Made by a program: the position numbers and the translations under genes. Of a stretch of DNA of 64,000 bases, positions 1,099 through 46,816 are shown in pieces (the first letter of the stretch is position 1; the number at the start of each line of letters is the position of its first letter). Under the pieces are notes generated by a model, which was not told the DNA's origin, did not search any database, and saw only the letters and a list, made by a program, of their open reading frames with translations. Location: assembly GCF_016903815.1 (NCBI RefSeq), contig NZ_CP069973.1; one strand, written 5' to 3'. Source of the DNA: Escherichia coli (lineage in GTDB: Bacteria; Pseudomonadota; Gammaproteobacteria; Enterobacterales; Enterobacteriaceae).

Positions 1099-2004
1099 AT
1101 GCGAGGAAAAATACCTAAAACGGAGCTGCTGGTGACTTTTGAGGTCGTCGCACGTTATGAAAGTTATACCAGAGCGGCAGAGGAGTTAGCGTTAACCCAA
1201 AGTGCAGTATTCAGACAAGTAAGTGCGCTGGAGGAATTTTTACATACTCCGTTATTTTCACACTCTAAAAAACGCATTTTTCTTAATGATGCAGGGAAGT
1301 ATTACCTGGGGATAGTAAAAGAAACATTAAATAAGCTGGAACGCGATACCAATACCATTATGACCTGGCAGCCTACGGTTCAGGTTATTGAACTTGCCGT
1401 GAATCCTACGTTTAGTACCCACTGGTTAATCCCAAATTTACATGAATTCACAAAGTTACATCCCGATATTATTGTTAATATTCACTCTTTAGCTAATAAC
1501 GGCGATTTTCTTAATCGGGAGTACGATGCTGTCATTATGCGCGAAAATTTTTGCGCGCCCTGGGCGGAAGTAGAATATCTCTTTGATGAGGAGATTTTGC
1601 CGGTATGCAGCGGCAGTTTGCTTGCAATGTCCGATCAAAAACTGTCAGTGGCAGAACTGCTTACAGAGTTACCACTTCTGCATCAAAGTACCCGTATTAC
1701 TGGCTGGGAAGAGTGGTTTGCCTTATCTGGCGTTAGCAGTCCGCTGGTCAACAACGGACCACGTTTCGATTTGCTTTCAATGCTGATTGCCGCCGTGCGC
1801 TCTAATCTCGGCGTGGCGCTGTTACCACGGTTCGCTATTCAACATGATTTGGATAGTGGCGATATGGTGATTCCCTGTGATGTGCCTATTCGTACCGGTA
1901 ATCGTTTTATTATGACGTGGCAGGAAGAGAAGTCTGACTCACCGCACTTGCAGCAATTTCGTGAATGGTTGCTGGCGAAATCGGTTGTACCGCAGGAGAT
2001 GTAA
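1099..2004 (+). CDS. LysR-type transcriptional regulator (likely regulator of the adjacent glutamate-fermentation operon)
   Basis: ORF 1069-2004; N-terminal HTH signature (TFEVVARYESYTRAAEELALTQSAVFRQVSALE) places the likely start at ATG 1099 (MRGKIPK). C-terminal LysR substrate-binding domain length (about 300 aa). Confidence 0.8.
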   Translation: MRGKIPKTELLVTFEVVARYESYTRAAEELALTQSAVFRQVSALEEFLHTPLFSHSKKRIFLNDAGKYYLGIVKETLNKLERDTNTIMTWQPTVQVIELAVNPTFSTHWLIPNLHEFTKLHPDIIVNIHSLANNGDFLNREYDAVIMRENFCAPWAEVEYLFDEEILPVCSGSLLAMSDQKLSVAELLTELPLLHQSTRITGWEEWFALSGVSSPLVNNGPRFDLLSMLIAAVRSNLGVALLPRFAIQHDLDSGDMVIPCDVPIRTGNRFIMTWQEEKSDSPHLQQFREWLLAKSVVPQEM

Positions 2005-2006
2005 AA

Positions 2007-2034
2007 CCTGCGCCTGGCGGGATGCCAGGCGCAG
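2007..2034. terminator. Bidirectional rho-independent-like hairpin between the convergent LysR and adenosyltransferase genes
   Basis: cctgcgcctggc-gggat-gccaggcgcagg perfect GC-rich inverted repeat directly after the LysR stop (2002-2004) and after the end of the minus-strand operon (2038). Confidence 0.6.
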
Positions 2035-2037
2035 TTA

Positions 2038-2640
2038 TTACCAGTCGATACCCGGCTGGGCCTGAATGCCGTTATCAAAAGCATGTTTGACGGGGCGGAT
2101 TTCGCTGACCGTATCCGCCATTTTTAATATCTGACTGTGGCAACCGCGTCCGGTGACAATGACACTTTGTTGTGCCGGGCGGTTTTGCAGAGAAGCGATC
2201 ACTTCTTCGGTATCCAGATAATGGTAAGCCAGCATATAGGTCAGCTCATCAAGCACCACTAAGTCGTAACGCTTGTCAGCCAGCATCCGTTTGCTTTCCG
2301 ACCAGACCTCTTTCGCCGCGTCGATATCCGCTTGCCGGTTCTGTGTCTCCCAGGTAAAACCGGTTCCCATAATATGAAACTCAACCCCCAGCGGCTGGAG
2401 AAGGTTGTATTCGCCGTTGTCCCATTGCCCCTTGATGTACTGCGCAACCCCCACCGTTTTGCCATGACCCACCGCGCGCGTCACAGTACCAAACGCGGCA
2501 GTGGATTTCCCTTTGCCATTGCCGGTGAAAACAATCAAAATCCCTTTTTTCTCTATCGCCGCCGCGATGCGCGTATCGACCTGTTCCTTCAATTTCTGCT
2601 GGCGCTGCACATGCCGTTCAGTTGAAATTCGCGCTTCCAT
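2038..2640 (-). CDS. cob(I)alamin adenosyltransferase (BtuR/CobA/CobO family)
   Basis: 200 aa; P-loop GNGKGKST and overall similarity to BtuR/CobO; last gene of the B12-dependent glutamate mutase operon. Confidence 0.8.
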   Translation of the reverse strand: MEARISTERHVQRQQKLKEQVDTRIAAAIEKKGILIVFTGNGKGKSTAAFGTVTRAVGHGKTVGVAQYIKGQWDNGEYNLLQPLGVEFHIMGTGFTWETQNRQADIDAAKEVWSESKRMLADKRYDLVVLDELTYMLAYHYLDTEEVIASLQNRPAQQSVIVTGRGCHSQILKMADTVSEIRPVKHAFDNGIQAQPGIDW

Positions 2641-2649
2641 TCATTTTCC

Positions 2650-4302
2650 TTAATGTCCCGCAGGGCAACTGGCGCAGCGGTGTTGCTGCTCAAACTGACT
2701 AAAGAAATTATTGCCTTTATCATCTACCAGGATGAATGCGGGCAGATTTTCCACTTCCATCATCCACACCGCTTCCATACCCAGCTCCGGGTATTCCAGG
2801 CAACGCAGACTTTTGACATATTCTTGCGCCAGTAACGCAGCTGCACCGCCAATACTACCCAGATTGAAGCCACCATGTTTGTGACAGGCATCGGTGACCT
2901 GCTGGCTGCGGTTACCTTTCGATAACATCACCAGACTGCCGCCAGCCGCCTGGAAGGTATCGACATAACCGTCCATTCGACCGCCCGTGGTTGGACCCAG
3001 TGAACCGCAGGCCATGTTCTCCGGTGTTTTCGCCGGGCCAGCGTAATAGACAATATGATGCTTCAGGTAATCCGGCATCGGTTCGCCGCTATCCAGCCGC
3101 GCTTTTATTTTGGCGTGGGCGATATCGCGCGCCACTACGATGGGACCATTTAACGACACGCGGGTGCCTACCGGTAATCTGGCGAGATCCTGCATCACGT
3201 CACGCAACGGACGGTTTAGATCCAGTTGTACATGTGGCGCGTGATTTTCTTCCCGCAGTGAGGCTGGAATATATTGCCCCGGATTGTGTTCGAGTTTTTC
3301 CAGCCAGATACCGTGCTTGTTAATTTTTGCTTTGATATTGCGATCGGCAGAACAGGAGAGCGCCATAGCTATCGGGCAAGAGCCACCGTGACGCGGCAGA
3401 CGAATGACGCGAATATCATGAGCGAAATATTTACCCCCAAATTGCGCACCAATACCAAATTGCTGACTGGCCTCGAGCAACACTTTTTCCAGCTCAATAT
3501 CACGGAATGCTTGTCCCTGCTCGTTTCCGCTGGTGGGCAAATTGTCGTAATATTTCGTTGAGGCCAGCTTGGCAACTTTTAAGGTTTGATCGGCTGAAAG
3601 CCCTCCGACGACAAAGGCGATGTGGTAAGGCGGGCAGGCAGCGGTGCCCAGCGATTTCATTTTTTCGATTAAAAATGCGGTCAGTTTTTCTGGTTGCAAT
3701 AAGGATTTGGTTTCCTGATAAAGTGCGGCTTTATTGGCGGAGCCGCCCCCTTTATTAACACAGAGAAAATGGTACTCATTACCAGCGACAGCGCTGATAT
3801 CAATCTGCGCCGGGAGATTGGTTTGCGTATTGACTTCGGTATACATATCCAGCGGCGCATTTTGTGAAAAGCGCAGATTATTTTCCTGGAAAGTACTGTA
3901 AATGCCTTTGCTTAAGGCTTCAGCGTCGTTACCTCCCGTCCATATCTGTTGCCCTTTACTGGCAACAATAGTTGCGGTGCCGGTATCCTGACAGTTGGGT
4001 AATATCCCTTTTGCTGAGACTTCAGCATTACGTAATAACTGCAACGCAACGTATTTATCATTACTACTGGCCTGCGGATCGTTAAGAATGCTGGCGACCT
4101 GTTGCAAATGAGCGGAACGTAAGAAAAAAGAGGCTTCATAAAATGCCTGCCGGGCAAGCAGCGTTAATGCTTCAGGAGCGATTTTTATCACTTCTTCGCC
4201 GTCTAATTCCGTTACTGTAATATGTTGATCGCTAATTAATGTATATTCTGTACCGTCTTTATTTTGTAGAAACGGTTCTTGCCAGATAAATGGTTTGGAC
4301 AT
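2650..4302 (-). CDS. fumD: Class I (Fe-S) fumarate hydratase family protein, predicted mesaconase/fumarase
   Basis: 550 aa, full-length FumA/FumB-like protein with conserved Cys ligands; sits in a methylaspartate-pathway operon where mesaconate hydration is the required step. The fumD name is from memory of the literature, not verified. Confidence 0.8.
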
Positions 4303-4409
4303 ATTTCACTTTTCACCTTAAACGTTAGTGTTACTTAATTGCCGTCTAACTTCATGATCCGGCTTATAAAAATGCGTAGTCATTGGCTTCTGATTGCTTA
4401 AGATCCCCC

Positions 4410-5690
4410 TCAGGGCAGAGCAACGTTCGATTCATTGGGTTTTAATGCTTTACCCCGACAACCCTCGCCGAAATGTTCGCCTTCCCACCGACTCACCATC
4501 GCAGCGCCCATTGCGTTGCTCATGACGTTTGTCGCGGAACGCCCCATATCAAGGAACGGATCAACGCCCATCAGCAAGATCAGCCCCGCTTCCGGAATAT
4601 TGAACTGGTTGAGCGTGGCGGCGATAACCACCATTGAGGCGCGTGGTACGCCAGCCATTCCTTTCGAGGTCAACATCAGGATCAACAGCATGGTGATTTG
4701 CTCACCGATGGATAAATGGATATTGCAGGCCTGGGCGATGAAAACTGTGGCGAAGGAGCAGTAGGCCATTGATCCAACGAGATTAAATGAGTAGCCAATG
4801 GGTAAGACAAAGCTGGCAATTTTGGGGGAAACGCCAAATTGCTCCAGTTTTTCAAGCGTTCCCGGAAAAGCCGCTTCAGAACTGGATGTGGTAAATGCCA
4901 GCAGGGCGGGTTCCGAAAGGGCGCGGGTCAGGCGTCTGATGCAGGGGCCGACATAAACGATGGCCAGACCGATAAGCAGCACCCAAAGTAATAACATGGT
5001 GAAATAAAATTCACCCATAAAGATCCCGGCGCTCACCATAACTGCCAGTCCTCGTTCAGCAATCAATGCTGAAATAGCAGCGAATACGGTCAGGGGAGCG
5101 AAGAGCATGACGTAGCCAGTGAGCTTTAACATGGCATGTGCCAGCGAATCTAAGGCGTGAACGATGGCGCTGCCTTTCTCGCCAATCGCCGTCAGGCTAC
5201 AGCCGAGGAAAATTGAGAACACCACGATTTGCAAAATTTCATTGTGCGCCATGGCATCGACAATGCTGGTGGGGAAAGCATGCGAAATAAATACTTTTAG
5301 CGTAAAGGGTTCTGACGCGACCACTCCGGTGGTTTCGGCTCCGTGTGCAACAAAATTAATTCCTGTGCCTGGCATGAAGAAATTTACTGTTATCAAGCCT
5401 AAGGCAATTGACAGCAATGAGGCGCAAATAAATAAAAAGAGTGTTTTAGAAAAAATACGACCAAGGGCTTTGGCATCTCCCATTTTAGCTATACCTACCA
5501 CCAGGGTAGAGGCCACTAACGGAGCGATAATCATTTTTATCAGTCGTAAGAAAATCGTCGTGAATATCGATATTTCTTGCGCATAGAGTTTTGCGGTTTC
5601 CGGTGAAGCAGTGTTATTGAGCACTACGCCGATAATCACTCCAAGTACCAGCGCCAAAAGAATCATCGTGGTTAAACTTATTTTCTTCAT
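4410..5690 (-). CDS. Dicarboxylate/amino acid:cation symporter (DAACS, GltP/DctA-like), probable glutamate or C5-dicarboxylate transporter
   Basis: ORF 4410-5711; multiple TM segments and DAACS family similarity. Start trimmed to ATG 5690 (MKKISLTT), which is preceded by a GGAGGA ribosome-binding site. Confidence 0.8.
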   Translation of the reverse strand: MKKISLTTMILLALVLGVIIGVVLNNTASPETAKLYAQEISIFTTIFLRLIKMIIAPLVASTLVVGIAKMGDAKALGRIFSKTLFLFICASLLSIALGLITVNFFMPGTGINFVAHGAETTGVVASEPFTLKVFISHAFPTSIVDAMAHNEILQIVVFSIFLGCSLTAIGEKGSAIVHALDSLAHAMLKLTGYVMLFAPLTVFAAISALIAERGLAVMVSAGIFMGEFYFTMLLLWVLLIGLAIVYVGPCIRRLTRALSEPALLAFTTSSSEAAFPGTLEKLEQFGVSPKIASFVLPIGYSFNLVGSMAYCSFATVFIAQACNIHLSIGEQITMLLILMLTSKGMAGVPRASMVVIAATLNQFNIPEAGLILLMGVDPFLDMGRSATNVMSNAMGAAMVSRWEGEHFGEGCRGKALKPNESNVALP

Positions 5691-5850
5691 TTTTTCCTCC
5701 ATCAGGTGCACGGCGATAAATCAGAATCAGGAGAAGTAGATGCCTGAATAGAGATTCAGGCACCTACCTGCTATTACAACCTTACAAATAGCTGAAGTGT
5801 TGAACTGCAATAAGTGACGGGATGTCAGTTGGCTAAAAGTATTCGGATTT

Positions 5851-6168
5851 TTACAAATCGAAACTCATATTTAATAAAGGTGCATGTTGCTGTGCACCAT
5901 AGACATCATTGTCACCTACATTCCCGGAGATAATATCTCGTGGCATGACGATTTTTACTGCGTTAGAAGGATCAAACCAGACAATACGGTGAATAAAGTC
6001 AGGTTCAACATGATATAAGCGCGCAATCAGTTCTGGGGTTAATTGCCCTGATGATTTAACTCGCTCATAGTTTTCTTTCGTTTTAAATAAAATATCTAAA
6101 ACCAGTTCGTAAGGTCCGGCATTTTTCGAACGAATGACTTGCGCCAGTGAGACAATTGACTGTTTCAT
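5851..6168 (-). CDS. Small conserved protein of unknown function (DUF4387-like), partner of the upstream DUF1446 gene
   Basis: 105 aa ORF whose start overlaps the stop of the 456-aa ORF by 4 nt (translational coupling); family assignment is from memory. Confidence 0.6.
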   Translation of the reverse strand: MKQSIVSLAQVIRSKNAGPYELVLDILFKTKENYERVKSSGQLTPELIARLYHVEPDFIHRIVWFDPSNAVKIVMPRDIISGNVGDNDVYGAQQHAPLLNMSFDL

Positions 6169-7535
6169 GCCTGAACTCCTTCTGGCGTCACCTGTTCAAT
6201 ATGGAAATCAAAACGCAGAGCGTCGTTGGCTTCAATCAGGTGATATATGGAAAATTCGTATACTGGCCCGCCCTGGATATCAGAAGGGGAGAACGGGAAC
6301 GCCAGGTTGCCTGCGGTAGCGATGCGGTTTTCATAGCCGTAGTGCAGCATAGTAGAGCGCACCAGCGAGCAAACGCTGTTGGCAATCTCCTGGGTCGGCG
6401 CAACTACATCTAGGACAATCCCCAGCTCATGCCCGGCAGTTTGCATCGGTTCATGGTCGCCCATCACCCCGTTTTTGCCGTACAGGTGGAAATTGATGTG
6501 AATGCTGTCATCGTCGAGCGACAGGTTACGCGAAACGCTGGTTTTGACTTCATCGATGATTTTATCGATCCCGGCGATCATGATCGGGTCGCGCGTTCCG
6601 GCGATGGTCAGACAGCGGAAGCCCACCCGTCGCGCACCTTCCAGTTTCAGGGCATACGGCGTTTCTTCATGCTTAGAACCGCTGACGTACACTTCGCTGT
6701 CATTGACCGCTTTAAATGTGCAGCCTTTCAGGTTCAACACGCCGCCAGGTCCAGGCAGGAAGTAGGGATCGGATTTCTCATACAGTGTGTGTGCAGCCGC
6801 TGACGTTTCGGTAAATTTACGCTTCGGATTAAATGTCTTCAGCGTAAAGCCGTTGTCATCAATGATGCCCATCGCACAGTCAGAGCCTGAGCCGGGCGTT
6901 GCGGCGATTGCCGCGCATTCAAGGATTTTCCCACAATGCAGCGCCAGACCTTCATCAAAGCCTTGCATGATCGGAAGCGCAGCAAAGCAGGCCGGGTCGT
7001 AAGCGCGCCCGCCCAGCACCACTTGCGCGCCTTCTTTCAGCGCCTGCTGGAAGGGTTCGATGCCCATTTGCGCGACGATATACGTACTTTCGTCAATCGC
7101 GTCGTGGGTTAACGGCGGGACAAAATCCAGCGCCGTGATTTTGCCGTTATCCAGCGCCTGGTGGACGATGGCTTTGTCAACGTCTGCCGGGATCAGCGCC
7201 ATCGAGAACGAGAGGTGCTCTTCCCGGGCAATCTCATGAATTATTTCTCGGCACCACTCCAGGTGTGGTGCGGCACCAGAACCGCCAGCCGTTCCGATCA
7301 CCACCGGTATATTATTTTGCACGCCTGCGGTGATCATATAGCGCAGATCGCGCTTGACCCCTGCGCGATCGGTAAACGGTTTGCCTGCCCCGAGGTAGTG
7401 GGGGCCTGGATCGGAAGAGCCTGCATCAACGGCGATCAGATCGGGCGATTCTGCCATCGCTTTGCGGAAGCTCTCTTCCGGGAATCCATACCCGAGGATT
7501 GCCGTTGGCGATAAGACTTTAAAAGAACGAGCCAT
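6165..7535 (-). CDS. AtuA-like / DUF1446 family protein of unknown function
   Basis: 456 aa ORF, operon-internal between methylaspartate ammonia-lyase and the transporter; resembles the AtuA (acyclic terpene utilisation) DUF1446 family by length and N-terminal motif. No characterised catalytic function known to me. Confidence 0.6.
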   Translation of the reverse strand: MARSFKVLSPTAILGYGFPEESFRKAMAESPDLIAVDAGSSDPGPHYLGAGKPFTDRAGVKRDLRYMITAGVQNNIPVVIGTAGGSGAAPHLEWCREIIHEIAREEHLSFSMALIPADVDKAIVHQALDNGKITALDFVPPLTHDAIDESTYIVAQMGIEPFQQALKEGAQVVLGGRAYDPACFAALPIMQGFDEGLALHCGKILECAAIAATPGSGSDCAMGIIDDNGFTLKTFNPKRKFTETSAAAHTLYEKSDPYFLPGPGGVLNLKGCTFKAVNDSEVYVSGSKHEETPYALKLEGARRVGFRCLTIAGTRDPIMIAGIDKIIDEVKTSVSRNLSLDDDSIHINFHLYGKNGVMGDHEPMQTAGHELGIVLDVVAPTQEIANSVCSLVRSTMLHYGYENRIATAGNLAFPFSPSDIQGGPVYEFSIYHLIEANDALRFDFHIEQVTPEGVQA

Positions 7536-7538
7536 TTG

Positions 7539-8780
7539 TTAATCCTTAGCCTGCAACAGCGCGATAGTACGATTCATTTCGTTGAAGACGATATCGAGGC
7601 CTTCGTCAAAGCCCATCCCTGGTTTTACCAGCATACGCATGGGGCGAGCGGCAAGGGCGACGTGGACACAGGTGCGGGCACTGACATCAGTTTCATTGCA
7701 GGTGCCGCCCTGGTACGCTTCCATGTTGTGGCTGTTGCAATAAAGAACTGCATCGACGATGTTGTGAATACTGCCCAGATCCGGGGTTTTGATTTGCACC
7801 ATGTGGCAACTGGCGGCATCGGTGAAATCAACAATATCCTGGTAGGTGTTACACCATTCATCGGCCACTAGTTTCACGCCGGAACCGAGGCGCGTCAGCT
7901 CTTTGGTAATCGCGGTCAGCAGGCGAATTTGATCGGGCTTGTTACCGGCATCGACCGGACCTTCAATGTAGAGCGGCAGGCCTTGCGCTTCTTTTTCCAG
8001 GCTGGCGATGTATTGCGCACAGCGAAGCGGATCCATATCGAAGATCAGACCGATAGTGCCGTATACATCGATGTGCAGGGTAGGGTGGTAGCGTGCGCTG
8101 GTGCGCTTGCTCAGAATACGATCCGACAGCCAGCGGACATATTCGCGCAGTTTTTCACCTTTAAAGCCCAGTTTCTCTTCGACGTTATTAATCAGTGCAT
8201 GGGGCAGCACGTCGATGCCCTTAAGGATCATCTTATCGACGGCGATATATCGATCGTCGCCGCTCTGACCAAATAATGGAATGGATTCCGCCACGCGTGG
8301 CAACTGCCATTCATCACAGACCACTTCAGTTTTCAGACGGCCGGTTGCCAGCGCGGTAGCATCAAGCAGCGCCTGTGATAATCCGTAGCGCACGGCGGTA
8401 TGCAGCAAGTTGCCGTCAATACGCAATTTGTCGAAGAAACGGGCATTCGGCAGGAAAGTATCCACATCGCGGCCTACCAGTAATGGCTTGATATGGTCGT
8501 TGAGGAACGGAATAAAGTGCTCCGCGAGGAACAGTGGATCGCGACCACCTGCCCCGGAATACTGTACGGCAGCACAGTCACCTACGGCGACCGCGCCGTT
8601 TTCCAGAATCAACTGTACCGATACGCACTCCCCGGCCTGACGTACGGCGTTAAACCCCTGTGTTACTGGCTCCCCGGTATAAAAAAAACCGTCGTGACCC
8701 GCTCCGTTTTTTATCGCCTGCTGGTCATCGAAATAGAATGAGGAGTAGCCAGCGGTAAAAAGGGCCTGTTTTATTTTCAT
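7539..8780 (-). CDS. 3-methylaspartate ammonia-lyase (methylaspartase, enolase superfamily)
   Basis: 413 aa, classic methylaspartase length and enolase-superfamily architecture; immediately downstream of the glutamate mutase genes. Confidence 0.85.
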   Translation of the reverse strand: MKIKQALFTAGYSSFYFDDQQAIKNGAGHDGFFYTGEPVTQGFNAVRQAGECVSVQLILENGAVAVGDCAAVQYSGAGGRDPLFLAEHFIPFLNDHIKPLLVGRDVDTFLPNARFFDKLRIDGNLLHTAVRYGLSQALLDATALATGRLKTEVVCDEWQLPRVAESIPLFGQSGDDRYIAVDKMILKGIDVLPHALINNVEEKLGFKGEKLREYVRWLSDRILSKRTSARYHPTLHIDVYGTIGLIFDMDPLRCAQYIASLEKEAQGLPLYIEGPVDAGNKPDQIRLLTAITKELTRLGSGVKLVADEWCNTYQDIVDFTDAASCHMVQIKTPDLGSIHNIVDAVLYCNSHNMEAYQGGTCNETDVSARTCVHVALAARPMRMLVKPGMGFDEGLDIVFNEMNRTIALLQAKD

Positions 8781-10225
8781 TATGGTCTTCCTATTAATTT
8801 ACTGTGGGATACAGCATTGATGTCATCTACAACCATCTGGAATGTCGGTTGGCGTCCTTCAAAGCGTGCGCGTTCCGCAACGTAATCGTGGTGGAGGTCG
8901 AGAATATCTTTTGGCAATGGAACGGCTCCGGCTTCCAGTACGCGTATCGCGCCGGTGTTGTCACGGACCGGAAGAATTTTGCCCGCGTTACACGCGGCTG
9001 GTGCAAATGGCACATCCAGTACGCCCGCTTCAAATGCCAGCACCGTACCGCGCGCAATATCACCATTACCCAGTTCGAACACTTTATTCAGTACCGCGCG
9101 AACCTCGCTCTTAATCAGTTCAATTTCCAGTTCAACCGCAGGGCACGGCGGGAATTTCTGCTCATTGACCATGTTGAGCATCTGGCGGGAGGCTTTCAGC
9201 CCCTGAATGTTGGCAGCGGCAGTCGGGATTCCCCAGGCTTCGTGAGGGCTTTTGGTGATGACTTTGGTGGCACCAGACATCCCCGCGACGGCTGCACCCC
9301 AGGAGATAATGGCGAACGCTTTCGATTCGTCTTCCGGAAAGCCGCCCATCCACTGGTGAAATACGGTACTTAATTCATAGTCGGTATAGCCATAGTTCTG
9401 AAAGTATTCGTGTGCAAGTTCACGCAGAGACTGGATCGCCGCGACATCCTGCGTCAGGCTGCCGACCTGTCCATAACCAACGGTGATAGATTTCACACCC
9501 TGTTCCAGCGCCAGTAATCCTTCGATTATCGCGATAGAGTGCGAGATAAACGGCGGGATCAGCGTACCCGTTAGTGGGCCAAATGGTTCGCGGTTGATGC
9601 GGATCCCGTGTTCTTCATACATCCCCATTAAACGGTCGCAGTACTGCCAGTCGCGGATCGATTTTTCCAGCGTTACGCGCTTGGCATACGGAATATTGTA
9701 GGAAATGCCGCCGCCTTCATAACTGGTAAAGCCGCTGGCCATCGAGATTTCAGCCAGCAGACGCGCATCTGGCGTGCCGTGGCGGATCTGTAGCGGTTTT
9801 TGCAGAGTTTCGGTGAGGCGACGGCAAGCTGCGACGCCGTGGTTAACGACCGGTAAACCGTTCAGTTTAGAGGTTCCGGCTTCGATGGATTTTTTAATCC
9901 CTACAGCAGCTTCTTCGTACCGATTCAGACGGGTATATGCATCGATGGTGCTCGGCAGCAGATCGCACTCTTCTTGTAGTGTTTTCAGTAGTTCGATGTG
10001 TTCGTCCATCAGCGCCACGCCTGCGCGCGGTTGGCTAAGAGTTTTACCTTCCTTGTCTGCTTTCAGCAGGGCAAGAGAGAAGCGTTTATGCTCAGGAATG
10101 GTTTGTTGGTATTTAACGCCATCTTCAAAGTTTTCAACATCCTTGCCGGTTTCCCAGGTTTTCAATACCTGTTGCCGCTCGGTCATGAATTCGTTATGGG
10201 TTAATTTCTTATTTCGAAGTTCCAT
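8780..10225 (-). CDS. Glutamate mutase epsilon (large catalytic) subunit, MutE/GlmE
   Basis: 481 aa, TIM-barrel large subunit length; operon context with the S and L components. Confidence 0.85.
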   Translation of the reverse strand: MELRNKKLTHNEFMTERQQVLKTWETGKDVENFEDGVKYQQTIPEHKRFSLALLKADKEGKTLSQPRAGVALMDEHIELLKTLQEECDLLPSTIDAYTRLNRYEEAAVGIKKSIEAGTSKLNGLPVVNHGVAACRRLTETLQKPLQIRHGTPDARLLAEISMASGFTSYEGGGISYNIPYAKRVTLEKSIRDWQYCDRLMGMYEEHGIRINREPFGPLTGTLIPPFISHSIAIIEGLLALEQGVKSITVGYGQVGSLTQDVAAIQSLRELAHEYFQNYGYTDYELSTVFHQWMGGFPEDESKAFAIISWGAAVAGMSGATKVITKSPHEAWGIPTAAANIQGLKASRQMLNMVNEQKFPPCPAVELEIELIKSEVRAVLNKVFELGNGDIARGTVLAFEAGVLDVPFAPAACNAGKILPVRDNTGAIRVLEAGAVPLPKDILDLHHDYVAERARFEGRQPTFQMVVDDINAVSHSKLIGRP

Positions 10226-10243
10226 TGATTGCAGCCTTAATTG

Positions 10244-11632
10244 TTATAGGGTTAAGCATTGAATACTGGTGCGCGCGGCGGCCAGTGGATCGACTCTGGC
10301 GACGTTTGCCAGCAGTGGTAATAGCCCCCGGGAATCGCGGTAATATTCAAATTCGGTCGGTAAGAGAATGCGTTTACCGTCGTCGTTTAACTCGCGGTAT
10401 TTCAACCAGTGATGCATATCGAACTGACTGGCACGCGAGAGCCATCCGCCGGAACCCACGACTTTACGCACGGTTGTCAGGTCACGTCCCATCTGTAAAT
10501 CGACATTGCCGACGCAGGTGCAGACCTCTTTTTTGGTGCCCGCATGTCTTTCGGTGGCATAACCCACACACAGTCCGGCCAGGACGGTATCGAAATATTT
10601 TTCTTCTGCATTCGCGGGTAAGTAGTCGGGATGAGCGACTAGATGACGGAGGTAATGATAAAAAGCGTCCAGCTGTGCGGGTTGCTGAGCAAAATTCACA
10701 TTGACTAACTCTTTCGCACTTTCACCAACCACCATTGCCGAGACGCGCATTCCCAGATCGCCTTCCACCGTCCGTTTCACGAAGGGTTCCGGTACGCCAT
10801 GTAAAACAGTGTCGGGCGAGAGCGTGTTGGCACAGGCTGAATAGACATCGGTGGTTGCGCCGCCCATGTCGATCAGCATGAACTCCTTCCAGCTGTGATC
10901 GACGTTACTGATTGCCTTAACCAGTTCAAAGACCGTCCATGGTGTCGGCATTGGTTCTTCGCCTGTTTTATCAACAATGACATCCAGCCCTTTCCCTTTA
11001 ACGATGCGTTTAAGGAATATGTCGCAGATAGCCTGGCGTGCAGCTAAAGGGTTCGGATGGTCAAGATCGGGCAGAACGTTGTCGACGATGGTCAGGTCTT
11101 TATGCCCTAGGATCTCCTGCACCTCGTCCTGAATATCCCGGTTTCCGGCATAAATAATGGCGCAGTCGAGTTTGGATTCTGCCAGCACACGGGCGTTATT
11201 CAGGCCGTAGCTTTCTTCTCCGCCGTCGGTGCCGCCGGTGAACAAGAGAATATCGGGCTGCGTTTCTTCCAGTGCCTGGATATCACGGCGGTTCAGCTTG
11301 TAGGCGTAATATTGCGCAATTTTAGCCCCCGCAGAGTGAGCGGTTACTTTCGCGGTTTCCAGGGTGATAGAAGGCACCAATCCCATTGCGGCAACCGCCA
11401 GCCCACCTTTGGCAGAGGAGGAATACTTCAATGTAACCTCACCGCTGTTAAACAGGGGGAGGGCATTATCTACGTTTAACACCAGGTTCAGGCTGGAGAA
11501 AAACCCCTTCGCCAGATGATGGGTGGTGGTTGGGGTCAGTACGTGGTTAACCAACGTTAACGCGTCCCCCTCCCGGGCGAAGAGGGCTGCTTTGGTCCAC
11601 GTCGAACCAATATCGACAGAGACGATTTGCAT
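10244..11632 (-). CDS. Glutamate mutase L component (MutL/GlmL, reactivating chaperone-like ATPase)
   Basis: 462 aa ORF between the S and E subunits, the typical glmS-glmL-glmE order; ASKHA-like N-terminus ([18 protein letters not shown]). Confidence 0.8.
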   Translation of the reverse strand: MQIVSVDIGSTWTKAALFAREGDALTLVNHVLTPTTTHHLAKGFFSSLNLVLNVDNALPLFNSGEVTLKYSSSAKGGLAVAAMGLVPSITLETAKVTAHSAGAKIAQYYAYKLNRRDIQALEETQPDILLFTGGTDGGEESYGLNNARVLAESKLDCAIIYAGNRDIQDEVQEILGHKDLTIVDNVLPDLDHPNPLAARQAICDIFLKRIVKGKGLDVIVDKTGEEPMPTPWTVFELVKAISNVDHSWKEFMLIDMGGATTDVYSACANTLSPDTVLHGVPEPFVKRTVEGDLGMRVSAMVVGESAKELVNVNFAQQPAQLDAFYHYLRHLVAHPDYLPANAEEKYFDTVLAGLCVGYATERHAGTKKEVCTCVGNVDLQMGRDLTTVRKVVGSGGWLSRASQFDMHHWLKYRELNDDGKRILLPTEFEYYRDSRGLLPLLANVARVDPLAAARTSIQCLTL

Positions 11633-12081
11633 CAGATTGCCTCTTCAAGAATGCGAGTATCAACGTTATGACGTTGGTTGATATCGTGGGCCATCAGCTG
11701 ACAAACATCTTCTAAGTCATGACTTGGGGAAAAGACGCGATCAAATCCCATCTCTTTGAACTTGGTTTCCACGTCAGCGAAGTCATGTTTTCCGACCACC
11801 AGGTTACCGCCCACATAGAGCAGGATGTTACCCAGCCCACGCTCGATGCAGCGTTCGCGCATGCCCAGACAATCGATATCGCCATGCCCATAGATAGAGG
11901 AGACGACAATCGCGTCAGCACCAGTTTCAATGGCAGCATCAATATATTCGTCCTGGCTGACCATTACGCCCAGATTAATAACTCTGAAGTCATGGTTGCT
12001 AAAAACGCGGTCCAGAACTTTATTGCCTACTGCATGGCAGTCCGCGCCAATAACGCCAATCACAAGTGTTGCTTTCTTCAT
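11632..12081 (-). CDS. Glutamate mutase sigma (B12-binding) subunit, MutS/GlmS
   Basis: ORF 11632-12144; cobalamin-binding DxHxxG motif ([11 protein letters not shown]). Start trimmed to ATG 12081 ([12 protein letters not shown]), preceded by AAGGA, giving 149 aa. Confidence 0.8.
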
Positions 12082-12627
12082 GGGTAATCCTTTGTAAGAC
12101 AGAGAGTAAAATAAGTTACACACGTCGTATTTATGGCCGCTCATAACGGCACAGGTTTAATATCACAGGAGTGTCTTTATCTGACCGTAATGTTGCAATT
12201 GATCTATTTTCAAAATGTCTTTCGGGAAATGATTGTTTAAAGTGTGTTTTCAAATTCTCATTTTAATTCAGTGTGTTATGTCAACTAATGTCATGAATGT
12301 TAAATTTTTAAAATTAACTTGATTTGATGTATTGAGATAATTGTGATCAACTTCTAATTTGCATTTTTGTGACGTGGCTTTAGCCATGAGTAAATGCATT
12401 TCATAAAAGTTAAGTCGAATTTCACTGCAATTCATCTCTGCTTAATGTAAAAATAATGTTGAAAATAACAAATAATTAATGATTCATGCGAATTATGACC
12501 TTTGTTAGCTCTTTTGATTTTTCGTAAAAAAGAAAAGTACATGAAGGTGCTACCAGTACGAGTAACGTTAATCAAAAGTTTTATTACGTCTGGCAATAAC
12601 GCAGGCCATTTTCGCGACTGGGTGGAT

Positions 12628-13050
12628 TTAATCAGTATAATCCTCATACAATAGGTCAGGATTTACTGAACCGTTAACGGGGATTTGGTGTTGAAATTTA
12701 GAAATGGCGGAGTCAATTAATGAAGACAATATCGGAAAAATGACAGTGTCAGAATTAATTTCAATTAATCCTTCTCGTTGTTGACCAAAAAAGATATTTA
12801 TCTTGATTTCATTTGTACTACGGCAATCAATATGCAGTAATTTTTGATCGCTGAGATTTTCTGTTTCATAAATGTTTTTGGCGATAGTCGGATGTATTGA
12901 TGCCAGACATCTGCTCAGATAAGCCAGATCCTTTAGGGAACACCCCGCTGAGTAGAGGATGTCAGAGAATTTTTGTGTGTCAACTGTTGTCTCTGAAGCG
13001 TATGTTGCATTGACAGGAAGGGTGTTGAAAGAGATTTGAGATGGGATCAT
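12628..13050 (-). CDS. Hypothetical protein, no recognisable family (orphan, AT-rich)
   Basis: 140 aa ORF in a strongly AT-rich block, co-directional with and 80 bp downstream of the 314-aa ORF; no motif I can assign. Confidence 0.5.
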   Translation of the reverse strand: MIPSQISFNTLPVNATYASETTVDTQKFSDILYSAGCSLKDLAYLSRCLASIHPTIAKNIYETENLSDQKLLHIDCRSTNEIKINIFFGQQREGLIEINSDTVIFPILSSLIDSAISKFQHQIPVNGSVNPDLLYEDYTD

Positions 13051-13130
13051 TATTTAAATCTTTCCGTGAGTAATAAAAATTAATCCCCGGGCATTGTTTG
13101 GCAATATTTGCCACAGGGAATATATAAAAA

Positions 13131-14075
13131 TTAAAGTATTTGATTGGCATCGGTTAACTGATCAATAACCAGTGCCAGATTGGTAAACATTTTGAAAAAG
13201 CGATACTGGCTCGGAATATCTCTTTCAAAGACGAAACATTCAATGTCATTGTTTGAAAAATAAAGGACTAGTGTTGCTGATTCGTCAGGAAAAATATGGA
13301 AATATATCTGGTTACCAGAAGGAGGATAGTCCAGAAGAAGGGTATCTTTGCCCGTCACATACCTGTTGTGGTCGTGGATGCTGCGCTCACACTTCATCAG
13401 AGGTGTCATGATACTCATGTATTCATCTGATGTTAATATATTAAAATCACCATCCATTTTAAAGAAACGATAAAGTAACAGTACATCCTCTTGCGTAACC
13501 GGTTCGTTTGTTTTTAGAGGGAAATAAGTGGGAACCAGAAGATGAGGTTCTAATCTATTTTGTTGAGCGCTATAACTAAATTTGAACATAAATTCCGGAT
13601 CGCTCATCAATTGAGCGACATAATTATGCCTGGCTTCAAAAATTTTAACTTTTATCAGGTTAAATAAGTCTGTTTCGTCATCCTGTATTAAAAGACATTG
13701 ACCATAGCAGCCAGGCTTTTTTTCATTATAAGCAGAAACGGTTATTCTGTCAGGAGTGTCAACGTTATATCCAAAAGCCAGATAGTGACCTTCCTCATCG
13801 AGATTTGTTTCCAGGTTATTTAAATTCATCACATGAAGTGTTTGCAATGCTGATTCAATGAGCTGTTGACTCTCTGAGGTAAATGTTTCGCGCTGCGTTG
13901 TATAAAGTGTATCGATTCCAACGACTATCCGATGTGGATCAAGGATGGCGGCAATCATCTTTATTACCTGCACAGTCATGGGTGATGTCATTGATTCTTT
14001 ATCTGTTTTTAGAGGATCATTAGATGGCCAACCTGAGAAGCGATTGACAGCAGAACTGATATTATCAGGACTCAT
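13131..14075 (-). CDS. Hypothetical protein, no recognisable family (orphan, AT-rich)
   Basis: 314 aa ORF, uninterrupted, in AT-rich DNA between the glutamate operon and the cydA regulatory region; codon usage atypical for the E. coli core. Confidence 0.55.
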   Translation of the reverse strand: MSPDNISSAVNRFSGWPSNDPLKTDKESMTSPMTVQVIKMIAAILDPHRIVVGIDTLYTTQRETFTSESQQLIESALQTLHVMNLNNLETNLDEEGHYLAFGYNVDTPDRITVSAYNEKKPGCYGQCLLIQDDETDLFNLIKVKIFEARHNYVAQLMSDPEFMFKFSYSAQQNRLEPHLLVPTYFPLKTNEPVTQEDVLLLYRFFKMDGDFNILTSDEYMSIMTPLMKCERSIHDHNRYVTGKDTLLLDYPPSGNQIYFHIFPDESATLVLYFSNNDIECFVFERDIPSQYRFFKMFTNLALVIDQLTDANQIL

Positions 14076-46689: not shown

Positions 46690-46816
46690 ATACTCGTCAT
46701 ACTTCAAGTTGCATGTGCTGCGTCTGCGTTCGCTCACCCCAGTCACTTACTTATGTAAGCTCCTGGGGATTCACTCGATTGTCGCCTTCCTGCAACTCGA
46801 ATTATTTAGAGTATAT
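46690..46816. repeat. ERIC/IRU intergenic repeat, copy 2 (ybhI-ybhJ intergenic)
   Basis: caagttgcatgtgctgcgtctgcgttcgctcaccccagtcacttacttatgtaagctcctggggattcac, reverse complement of the ERIC consensus. Confidence 0.85.

Follow-up and report, generated by a model that had tools for sequence, protein, structure and literature searches.

What does a strong hairpin do between two genes of the same operon? The question arose from a minus-strand island of glutamate mutase, methylaspartase and FumD genes in a 64-kb stretch of Escherichia coli DNA (referred to throughout as the window), where a sequence-only reading had noticed a palindrome and suggested that it may be a partial terminator or a processing site that sets different expression levels for the genes before and after it. 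By the RefSeq annotation and the list of open reading frames, the island begins with glmS, glmL, glmE, the methylaspartate ammonia-lyase gene, an AtuA-family gene and a DUF4387 gene, in that order, and these enzyme genes either overlap or are spaced by 3–18 nt, forming a tightly packed module. A second module, symporter-fumD-cobO, lies downstream of it, with 107 nt between the symporter gene and fumD (4303–4409), and the hairpin stands in the gap between the two modules. The features of the locus are:

5851 to 6168, minus strand: DUF4387 gene, the last gene of the enzyme module
5691 to 5850, minus strand: intergenic gap of 160 nt between DUF4387 and the symporter gene (RefSeq annotation of the identical strain 7/2)
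5770 to 5850, minus strand: 5′ flank of the gap, with a 4-bp remnant (UGAC...GUCA, 5815 to 5827) of hp1, the covarying upstream hairpin found there in other genera
5734 to 5769, minus strand: full stem-loop by RNAfold, 16 bp (14 Watson-Crick and 2 G·U), with a CUCU loop at 5750 to 5753
5741 to 5762, minus strand: core of the stem-loop, a perfect 9 bp with a 4-nt loop, unique in the window (0 expected by chance)
5712 to 5781, minus strand: weak enclosing helix of GGUUGUA (5775 to 5781) with UAUCGCC (5712 to 5718), doubtful in E. coli
5691 to 5733, minus strand: 3′ flank, a pyrimidine-rich, U-interrupted tail beginning CUCCUGAUUCUGAUUUAUCGCC, then the Shine-Dalgarno sequence GGAGG (5696 to 5700), followed by the symporter ATG (5688 to 5690)
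4410 to 5690, minus strand: dicarboxylate/amino acid:cation symporter gene, GltP-like, the first gene of the downstream module
4302 to 2650, minus strand: class I fumarase FumD (RefSeq annotation and open reading frame list)
2640 to 2038, minus strand: cobO, followed by a convergent LysR gene
2008 to 2034, minus strand: canonical intrinsic terminator, an 11-bp stem (9 G-C) and then GUUUUACAUC; the top call of the terminator scan and our positive control

The limits of the gap, 5691–5850, had been placed exactly. The segment 5400–6300 of the window is 100% identical to strain 7/2, in which RefSeq puts the DUF4387 stop codon at 5851 and the symporter ATG at 5690, and it was found in 1,124 of 5,426 complete E. 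coli genomes. A mechanical call of open reading frames has the symporter begin at GTG 5711, and a further ATG stands in frame at 5702; the ATG at 5690 is favoured by RefSeq, by the conservation of residue 1 in at least 45 orthologues and by the GGAGG at 5696–5700.

The cluster was described by Kronen and Berg (2015), mostly from pathogenic enterobacteria and with FumD as ECs0757, in a study without transcript mapping of the cluster (PMC4682846). Methylaspartase activity was undetectable in an O157:H7 strain in the same study (PMC4682846), and expression of the operon in E. coli may accordingly be poor. Its authors also pointed out that the AtuA-family gene is mis-annotated (PMC4682846); in the Sakai record (L066, NC_002695.2, 846933–848617) it stands as a second ‘3-methylaspartate ammonia-lyase’, and the DUF4387 gene as an ‘acyl-CoA synthetase’. 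The surroundings of the island vary: in strain 7/2 it lies after mngB and an RtcB-family gene, and in O157:H7 Sakai and EDL933 (L066 and L067) it immediately follows sucD and mngAB is missing. The gap corresponds to 846773–846932 of NC_002695.2 in Sakai and to 846549–846708 of CP008957.1 in EDL933. Published EHEC data list no small gene within it. A contig labelled ‘MAG: Collinsella sp.’ (L008, JAIJJM010000101.1) has DUF4387 and symporter genes 100% identical, and FumD 99% identical, to those of the window, with the common E. coli haplotype as its spacer; it is almost certainly E. coli DNA that was mis-binned into an actinobacterial bin.

The hairpin and its surroundings in E. coli

The palindrome, tgcctgaat-agag-attcaggca in plus-strand letters, is indeed present at 5741–5762; on the sense (minus) strand its core reads UGCCUGAAU-CUCU-AUUCAGGCA, and the stretch 3′ of the core is pyrimidine-rich, as had been said (UCUACUUCUCCUGAUUCUGAUUU, 18 of 23 residues). 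The helix extends beyond this core to 16 bp, with AGGUAGGUGCCUGAAU pairing with AUUCAGGCAUCUACUU on the sense strand, and the stem-loop is positioned 82 nt past the DUF4387 stop codon and 43 nt ahead of the symporter start codon. RNAfold gave it an energy of -23.1 to -23.7 kcal/mol, compared with -9.4 ± 2.3 kcal/mol for shuffled sequences (z = -6.3, with none of 200 shuffles as good), and the pairing probability of the stem was ~0.9–1.0 with 220 nt of context folded. The hairpin ranked eighth when both strands of the 64 kb were scanned in 44-nt windows (about 42,600 local folds), the first place being held by the operon-end terminator at 2008–2034; the other long gap of the operon, at 4303–4409, had structure not above that of its shuffles (z = +0.8). 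The operon-end hairpin lies between the convergent cobO and LysR genes and is T-rich on both sides, and it is therefore probably a bidirectional terminator for the two.

No second copy of the gap sequence was found in the window, even with 3 mismatches allowed, and in E. coli the 160-nt gap gave one match per genome in 1,123 of 5,426 genomes, always at the same locus. Since the hairpin is single-copy in every E. coli genome that carries it, it is not a REP-type repeat, and a REP/BIME, ERIC-like or other dispersed repeat was ruled out in the same way; nor did we see a resemblance to the REP consensus. Searches against Rfam produced no match up to E = 5 for positions 1800–13200 of the window, and for the Citrobacter braakii locus the one match was at chance level, with 10.8 bits against a gathering score of 40.

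The gap in other genera

For comparison, 58 loci of other species were retrieved with the DUF4387 protein. In nearly all Enterobacterales that bear the cluster, the symporter gene follows DUF4387 after a gap of 120–240 nt, most often 160–170 nt. An alignment of 33 distinct sequences, from Citrobacter, Klebsiella, Enterobacter, Salmonella (arizonae and diarizonae), Buttiauxella, Lelliottia, Pluralibacter and Raoultella, revealed a fixed layout: a CA-rich stretch, hp1, the invariant block AUUCAUGCGGUUGGUCA and a G+C-rich second hairpin, hp2, and after it CCACCCUACAC, ACCAGCC or ACCAACC, UUUAUCCGAUGGAG and the AUG. The pairing of its three helices over the 33 sequences was:

hp1: two-sided changes at 6 of 9 pairs; 95% of cells paired
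hp2: two-sided changes at 9 of 13 pairs; 94% of cells paired
GGUUGGU:ACCAGCC helix: two-sided changes at 0 of 7 pairs, one-sided changes at 5, all of them pair-preserving; 97.8% of cells paired

The values observed for the whole structure were reached by none of 500 column shuffles, and pairing fell to 29–43% when the partners were slid by 1–3 columns.

A covariance model of hp2 and its enclosing helix (R1), built without any Escherichia sequence, found its best match in the window at 5708–5783 on the minus strand. The score was modest (18.2 bits, E about 0.1–0.2); the match nonetheless fell exactly where hp2 lies, with DUF4387 on one side and the symporter gene on the other, and aligned the E. 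coli stem column by column. Between E. coli and C. braakii, 6 of the 15 stem pairs had changed on both sides and 3 on one side, and none was broken. Because of the placement by the model and this pair-by-pair match, the E. coli hairpin is, on the alignment, the counterpart of hp2 and not of hp1. The two hairpins of other Enterobacterales share the gap and are both covarying and on the sense strand, but hp1 differs in lying directly after the DUF4387 stop codon, in being a canonical terminator in Yersinia and in surviving as a mere 4-bp remnant in E. coli. To the GGUUGGU:ACCAGCC helix corresponds the possible enclosing helix of E. coli, with 6 of 7 pairs formed, one mismatch and an end pair that is broken in one haplotype.

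Hairpin and start codon are separated by a constant 43–48 nt or so in E. coli, in Escherichia sp. MOD1 and in the other genera. The loop, by comparison, is CUCU, UGAA or, in the other genera, 8–11 nt long, a range of 4–11 nt with no conserved hp2 loop sequence. Its freedom to vary in both length and sequence suggests that only the helix matters, and the conserved feature of the hairpin is its structure rather than its sequence. The variability of the loop also speaks against a binding site for a dimeric DNA-binding protein and against recognition of a particular loop, and an operator for a transcription factor was ruled out by the half-site spacing of 4–11 nt, the covarying arms and an excess of G·U pairs. 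That excess bears on the molecule under selection. The cells of the hp2 stem comprise 447 Watson-Crick, 58 G·U and 12 A·C pairings, hp1 has the same bias (about 64 G·U to 1 A·C), and the antisense strand of the E. coli hairpin folds more weakly, at -19.8 kcal/mol. Neither the decay of a DNA palindrome by chance nor selection for the antisense RNA would favour G·U here, and the 58 G·U against 12 A·C, with the weaker antisense fold, show the hairpin to be an RNA structure selected on the sense strand of the operon.

Some strong hairpin stands at this module boundary in every lineage. Both hairpins occur in the Citrobacter/Klebsiella/Enterobacter/Salmonella group, where hp1 lacks a U-run; hp2 is absent from the Pseudescherichia, Yersinia and Morganella lineages. 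In Yersinia a textbook intrinsic terminator, a 10-bp stem and UUUUUUCU, comes right after DUF4387 (at 4360–4386 of locus L046 in Yersinia alsatica, and likewise in L044, L050 and L055), and since this terminator is present and hp2 is absent, the Yersinia symporter is probably a separate transcription unit. The Pseudescherichia group has an hp1 with a partly U-rich tail and an enclosing helix, GCUGGU:ACCAGC, whose bases have changed and whose pairing is kept. Escherichia sp. E1V33 (L010, 4316–4590) and E. whittamii (L011) have lost the symporter gene, and an unrelated spacer of 270–290 nt, not alignable with that of E. coli, leads from DUF4387 to fumD and holds a different hairpin with a U-rich tail, AUUUAUCU. 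Thus hp2 occurs in lineages whose upstream hairpin falls short of a canonical terminator, and there read-through into the symporter gene is to be expected.

The C. braakii spacer (L043, 4319–4486), whose layout is common to 32 other loci, is far better conserved than the E. coli version. Besides the helices, spacers of this kind hold a CA-rich (AAN)n stretch, a near-invariant hp1 loop (GCUGUAUCAC) and a CCCUAC block, and the DUF4387-symporter spacer of the other genera could be an undescribed leader RNA.

The role of the hairpin

The hairpin belongs neither to the canonical terminators nor to the dispersed repeats, nor to any known RNA family; it is an uncatalogued element of a conventional mRNA type and not a new mechanism. 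The reading that we prefer, with a probability of about 0.45, is that it may act post-transcriptionally as a barrier to decay or processing in the mRNA of the glutamate-to-mesaconate operon. RNA polymerase would read through a helix that is stable and has no U-run after it, an endonuclease would cut the flanking single-stranded, A/U-rich sequence, and the helix would then block 3′-to-5′ exonucleases or shield whichever end the cut leaves. Different lifetimes, and hence different expression, would follow for the 5′ part of the message, which encodes the enzymes, and for its 3′ part with symporter, fumD and cobO. Such a mechanism is suggested because helices behave in this way in the malE-malF, hisJ-hisQ, puf and ompA-type cases.

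Intercistronic stabiliser stem-loops include the REP hairpins of malE-malF and hisJ-hisQ in E. coli and Salmonella and the hairpins of the puf operon of Rhodobacter capsulatus. The present hairpin resembles them in being a sense-strand stem-loop without a U-run in an untranslated gap before a membrane-protein gene, in that the helix and not the sequence appears to matter, and in that the upstream segment is presumably needed at the higher level; unlike REP/BIME elements, it has a single copy in each genome, always at this locus. Of what would be looked for in a stability hairpin between cistrons, the gap offers a sense-strand stem-loop that is stable and lies outside the coding regions, with covariation and a wobble bias; the mRNA segments on its two sides would further be predicted to differ in abundance or half-life in a way that depends on the hairpin. 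Of the two roles first suggested, then, processing or stability ‘punctuation’ fits both the covariation and the preference for G·U over A·C, and partial termination is the part that finds no support, on evidence presented below. The position of the hairpin suits a decay barrier as well, since no other long untranslated spacer separates the enzyme module from the transporter/FumD/CobO module. On the other side of the ledger, the same observations fit a role in translation for the symporter 5′ untranslated region, hp1 of the other genera could already be the exonuclease barrier of the upstream segment, which would leave the need for hp2 unexplained, and within E. coli the stem has a U·U mismatch in strain 2D and has been lost to IS1 in strains 100416 and VE-T9. 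RNase III is unlikely to be a conserved processing enzyme here, though it might act in E. coli: its sites call for double-stranded RNA of some two turns, or at least roughly 20 bp, and the stem has 16 bp in E. coli (18 bp if a bulge is admitted), around 15 bp in the other genera and only 7–11 bp in Escherichia sp. MOD1.

A helix that is selected across genera and placed in the single long spacer offers a mutable handle for studying how the enzyme genes come to be expressed in amounts different from those of the transporter, mesaconase and adenosyltransferase genes. It also corrects the assumption that a hairpin inside an operon is a leaky terminator, although its practical importance is modest.

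It is possible, though we think it unlikely, that the hairpin is instead part of the 5′ untranslated leader of the symporter gene and tunes translation or the binding of a regulator, in which case it could be a ribosome standby platform, an insulating helix or part of a larger structure responsive to a small RNA, a protein or a ligand. Such a role would suit the constant distance of about 43–48 nt from hairpin to start codon, the capping of the GGUUGGU:ACCAGCC helix by hp2 in other genera, the invariant flanks UUCAUGCGGUUGGUCA, CCCUAC and UCCGAUGGAG, and the want of the hairpin in Yersinia, where a true terminator ends the upstream module. It is not supported by the state of the ribosome binding site: accessibility, taken as the mean unpaired probability of the segment from the Shine-Dalgarno sequence to the AUG, was equal to that of controls in which the upstream gap had been dinucleotide-shuffled in 21 of 21 species tested, and sequestration of the Shine-Dalgarno sequence or AUG was ruled out on this account. 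Nor do long-range pairings with the start codon or Shine-Dalgarno sequence covary, the conserved flanks and hp1 have decayed in E. coli, and no Rfam family matches. Several particular candidates were rejected along the way. The helix UUCAU:AUGAA, seen in minimum-energy folds, had no covariation; CCAUUGG:CCGAUGG and, in E. coli, AAAUCCGAAU:AUUCUGAUUU were contradicted by variants; and an apparent covariation of UUAU/UAAU upstream with AUAA/AUUA in codons 4–5 proved, by eye, inconsistent across species. An open reading frame ahead of the symporter gene, starting at the AUG that is conserved within UUCAUGCGG, was set aside as well, with gap lengths that differ by non-multiples of 3, no Shine-Dalgarno sequence and no such AUG in E. 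coli.

The leader idea has a bolder form, to which we attach a low probability: the whole Enterobacteriaceae spacer would be an undescribed structured regulatory RNA that couples symporter expression to a signal, and what E. coli retains in its hairpin would be the core of that RNA. Two covarying hairpins, the enclosing helix, the invariant single-stranded blocks and the CA-rich (AAN)n stretch could be its parts, and a small RNA, Hfq, another protein or a metabolite could be the signal. A riboswitch or structured leader would be expected to have several helices, conserved unpaired nucleotides and an expression platform, either a terminator or sequestration of the ribosome site. The E. coli gap does not look like one, with a single robust hairpin, no terminator and a ribosome site as accessible as in the shuffles, and in the spacer of the other genera, despite its additional features, no expression platform was detectable either.

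A promoter within the gap, just upstream of the hairpin, is another improbable account; the hairpin would then be the 5′-terminal stem-loop of a separate symporter-fumD-cobO transcript and shield it from decay that depends on the 5′ end. The precedent is the stem-loop of the ompA 5′ untranslated region, a protective hairpin at the 5′ terminus, and like it the present hairpin is strong and precedes the ribosome binding site of a gene for a membrane protein by some tens of nucleotides; to be 5′-terminal, however, it would need a cut or a transcription start just upstream, and there is no convincing promoter. A TGTAAT, which matches the -10 consensus at 5 of 6 positions, lies 6–7 nt upstream of the base of the E. 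coli hairpin, but it is without an acceptable -35 element or TG extension and its position is not kept as a -10 in other genera, where an nA..AT element after hp1 would, as we read it, place the start at the conserved GGUUGG. Yersinia and Morganella, with a terminator before the symporter gene, must have a promoter of its own for it. No sigma-70-like promoter on the sense strand passed our scan in E. coli, C. braakii or Yersinia, which over 160 nt is weak evidence, and among the rows listed of an EDL933 start-site table, whose coverage of this position is uncertain, no start fell at 8465xx–8467xx.

We are similarly disinclined to regard the hairpin as having no present function, that is, as the remains of an old terminator or of a small palindromic insert whose arms are held complementary by template switching at the level of DNA. 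Of the sites in the gap that vary among E. coli strains, roughly half fall in the hairpin, it is missing from the Pseudescherichia, Yersinia and Morganella lineages, and other palindromic elements have been inserted into the same gap in C. amalonaticus S646 and K. oxytoca. Upkeep at the level of DNA, however, predicts as many G·T as A·C mismatches, and the 58 against 12 observed favour wobble in the sense RNA; the pairing is kept across genera despite stems that differ at most positions, and with one copy per E. coli genome the sequence does not qualify as a dispersed element.

A weak intrinsic terminator that attenuates read-through into the symporter module, as the sequence-only reading had it, is more doubtful still. 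The hairpin has a stability comparable to that of intrinsic terminators (16 bp and about -23 kcal/mol) and, in E. coli, a pyrimidine-rich 3′ side that would start with UUCU were the two weak basal pairs to open, and E. coli lacks the upstream hairpin that looks terminator-like in other lineages. What it does not have is a U-tract: where at least 5 U in 8 nt were looked for, CUCCUGAU has 3, and UUCUCCUG, which follows a stem 2 bp shorter, has 4, in either case interrupted by C. It further departs from intrinsic terminators in its mid-operon position and in the base of its stem, which is rich in A/U and G·U (6 pairs of the stem are G-C, and the basal ones A-U and G·U). The terminator scan, whose top call was the operon-end terminator (2034–2008), did not call the full hairpin and flagged only a 5-bp sub-hairpin at 5770–5757, within the 5′ arm alone, which the full stem out-competes; in the C. 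braakii gap it found no terminator-like site. Lastly, the counterparts in 33 species continue into the U-poor, C/A-rich CCACCCUACAC, and because hp2 in other species is never followed by U residues, intrinsic termination is not its conserved function; a weak terminating activity peculiar to E. coli may still exist.

Least probable, in our judgement, is a Rho-dependent attenuator in which the pyrimidine-rich unpaired flanks load Rho and the hairpin is looped out between them, as boxB is between rutA and rutB in lambda tR1: the 160 nt of RNA are untranslated, the unpaired flanks are poor in G (CCACCCUACACAAUUCCAAUUACCAGCCUUUAUCC of other genera has 1 G in 35 nt) and the E. coli tail is 78% pyrimidine, but a Rho loading site was rejected on an excess of C over G (78-nt windows) that is not exceptional, ranking within the top 5.7% for the windows of the E. 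coli operon and within the top 1.5% for those of the 8.3-kb C. braakii locus, with several coding windows higher.

Variation within Escherichia and insertions in the gap

Haplotypes of E. coli were collected from genomes and metagenomes. The stem has three polymorphic sites: an A/G change in the 5′ arm (A-U to G·U), an A/G change in the 3′ arm (U-A to U·G) and the A-to-U change that yields the U·U mismatch of strain 2D; two of the three thus retain a wobble pair. The loop varies as CUCU, CUUU and UUUU. A metagenome scan with a pattern from downstream of the hairpin recovered E. coli haplotypes alone and no new lineages. A deletion has removed the upper part of the hairpin in Escherichia sp. 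MOD1-EC7003, where a perfect 7-bp helix with a UGAA loop has been kept.

The two losses to IS1 differ in extent: in strain 100416 (L003, 1749–2570) the element stands in place of DUF4387 and the 5′ arm of the hairpin, and in strain VE-T9 (L002, 5248–6090) it removes everything downstream of the DUF4387 start, the hairpin included. Insertions are also seen in the same spacer elsewhere, of about 115 nt in C. amalonaticus S646 (L019, 4319–4600) and about 195 nt in K. oxytoca NBRC 105695 (L030, 4319–4682), and both are long, imperfect palindromes with only a weak similarity to an ERIC-like element at 46731–46774 of the window.
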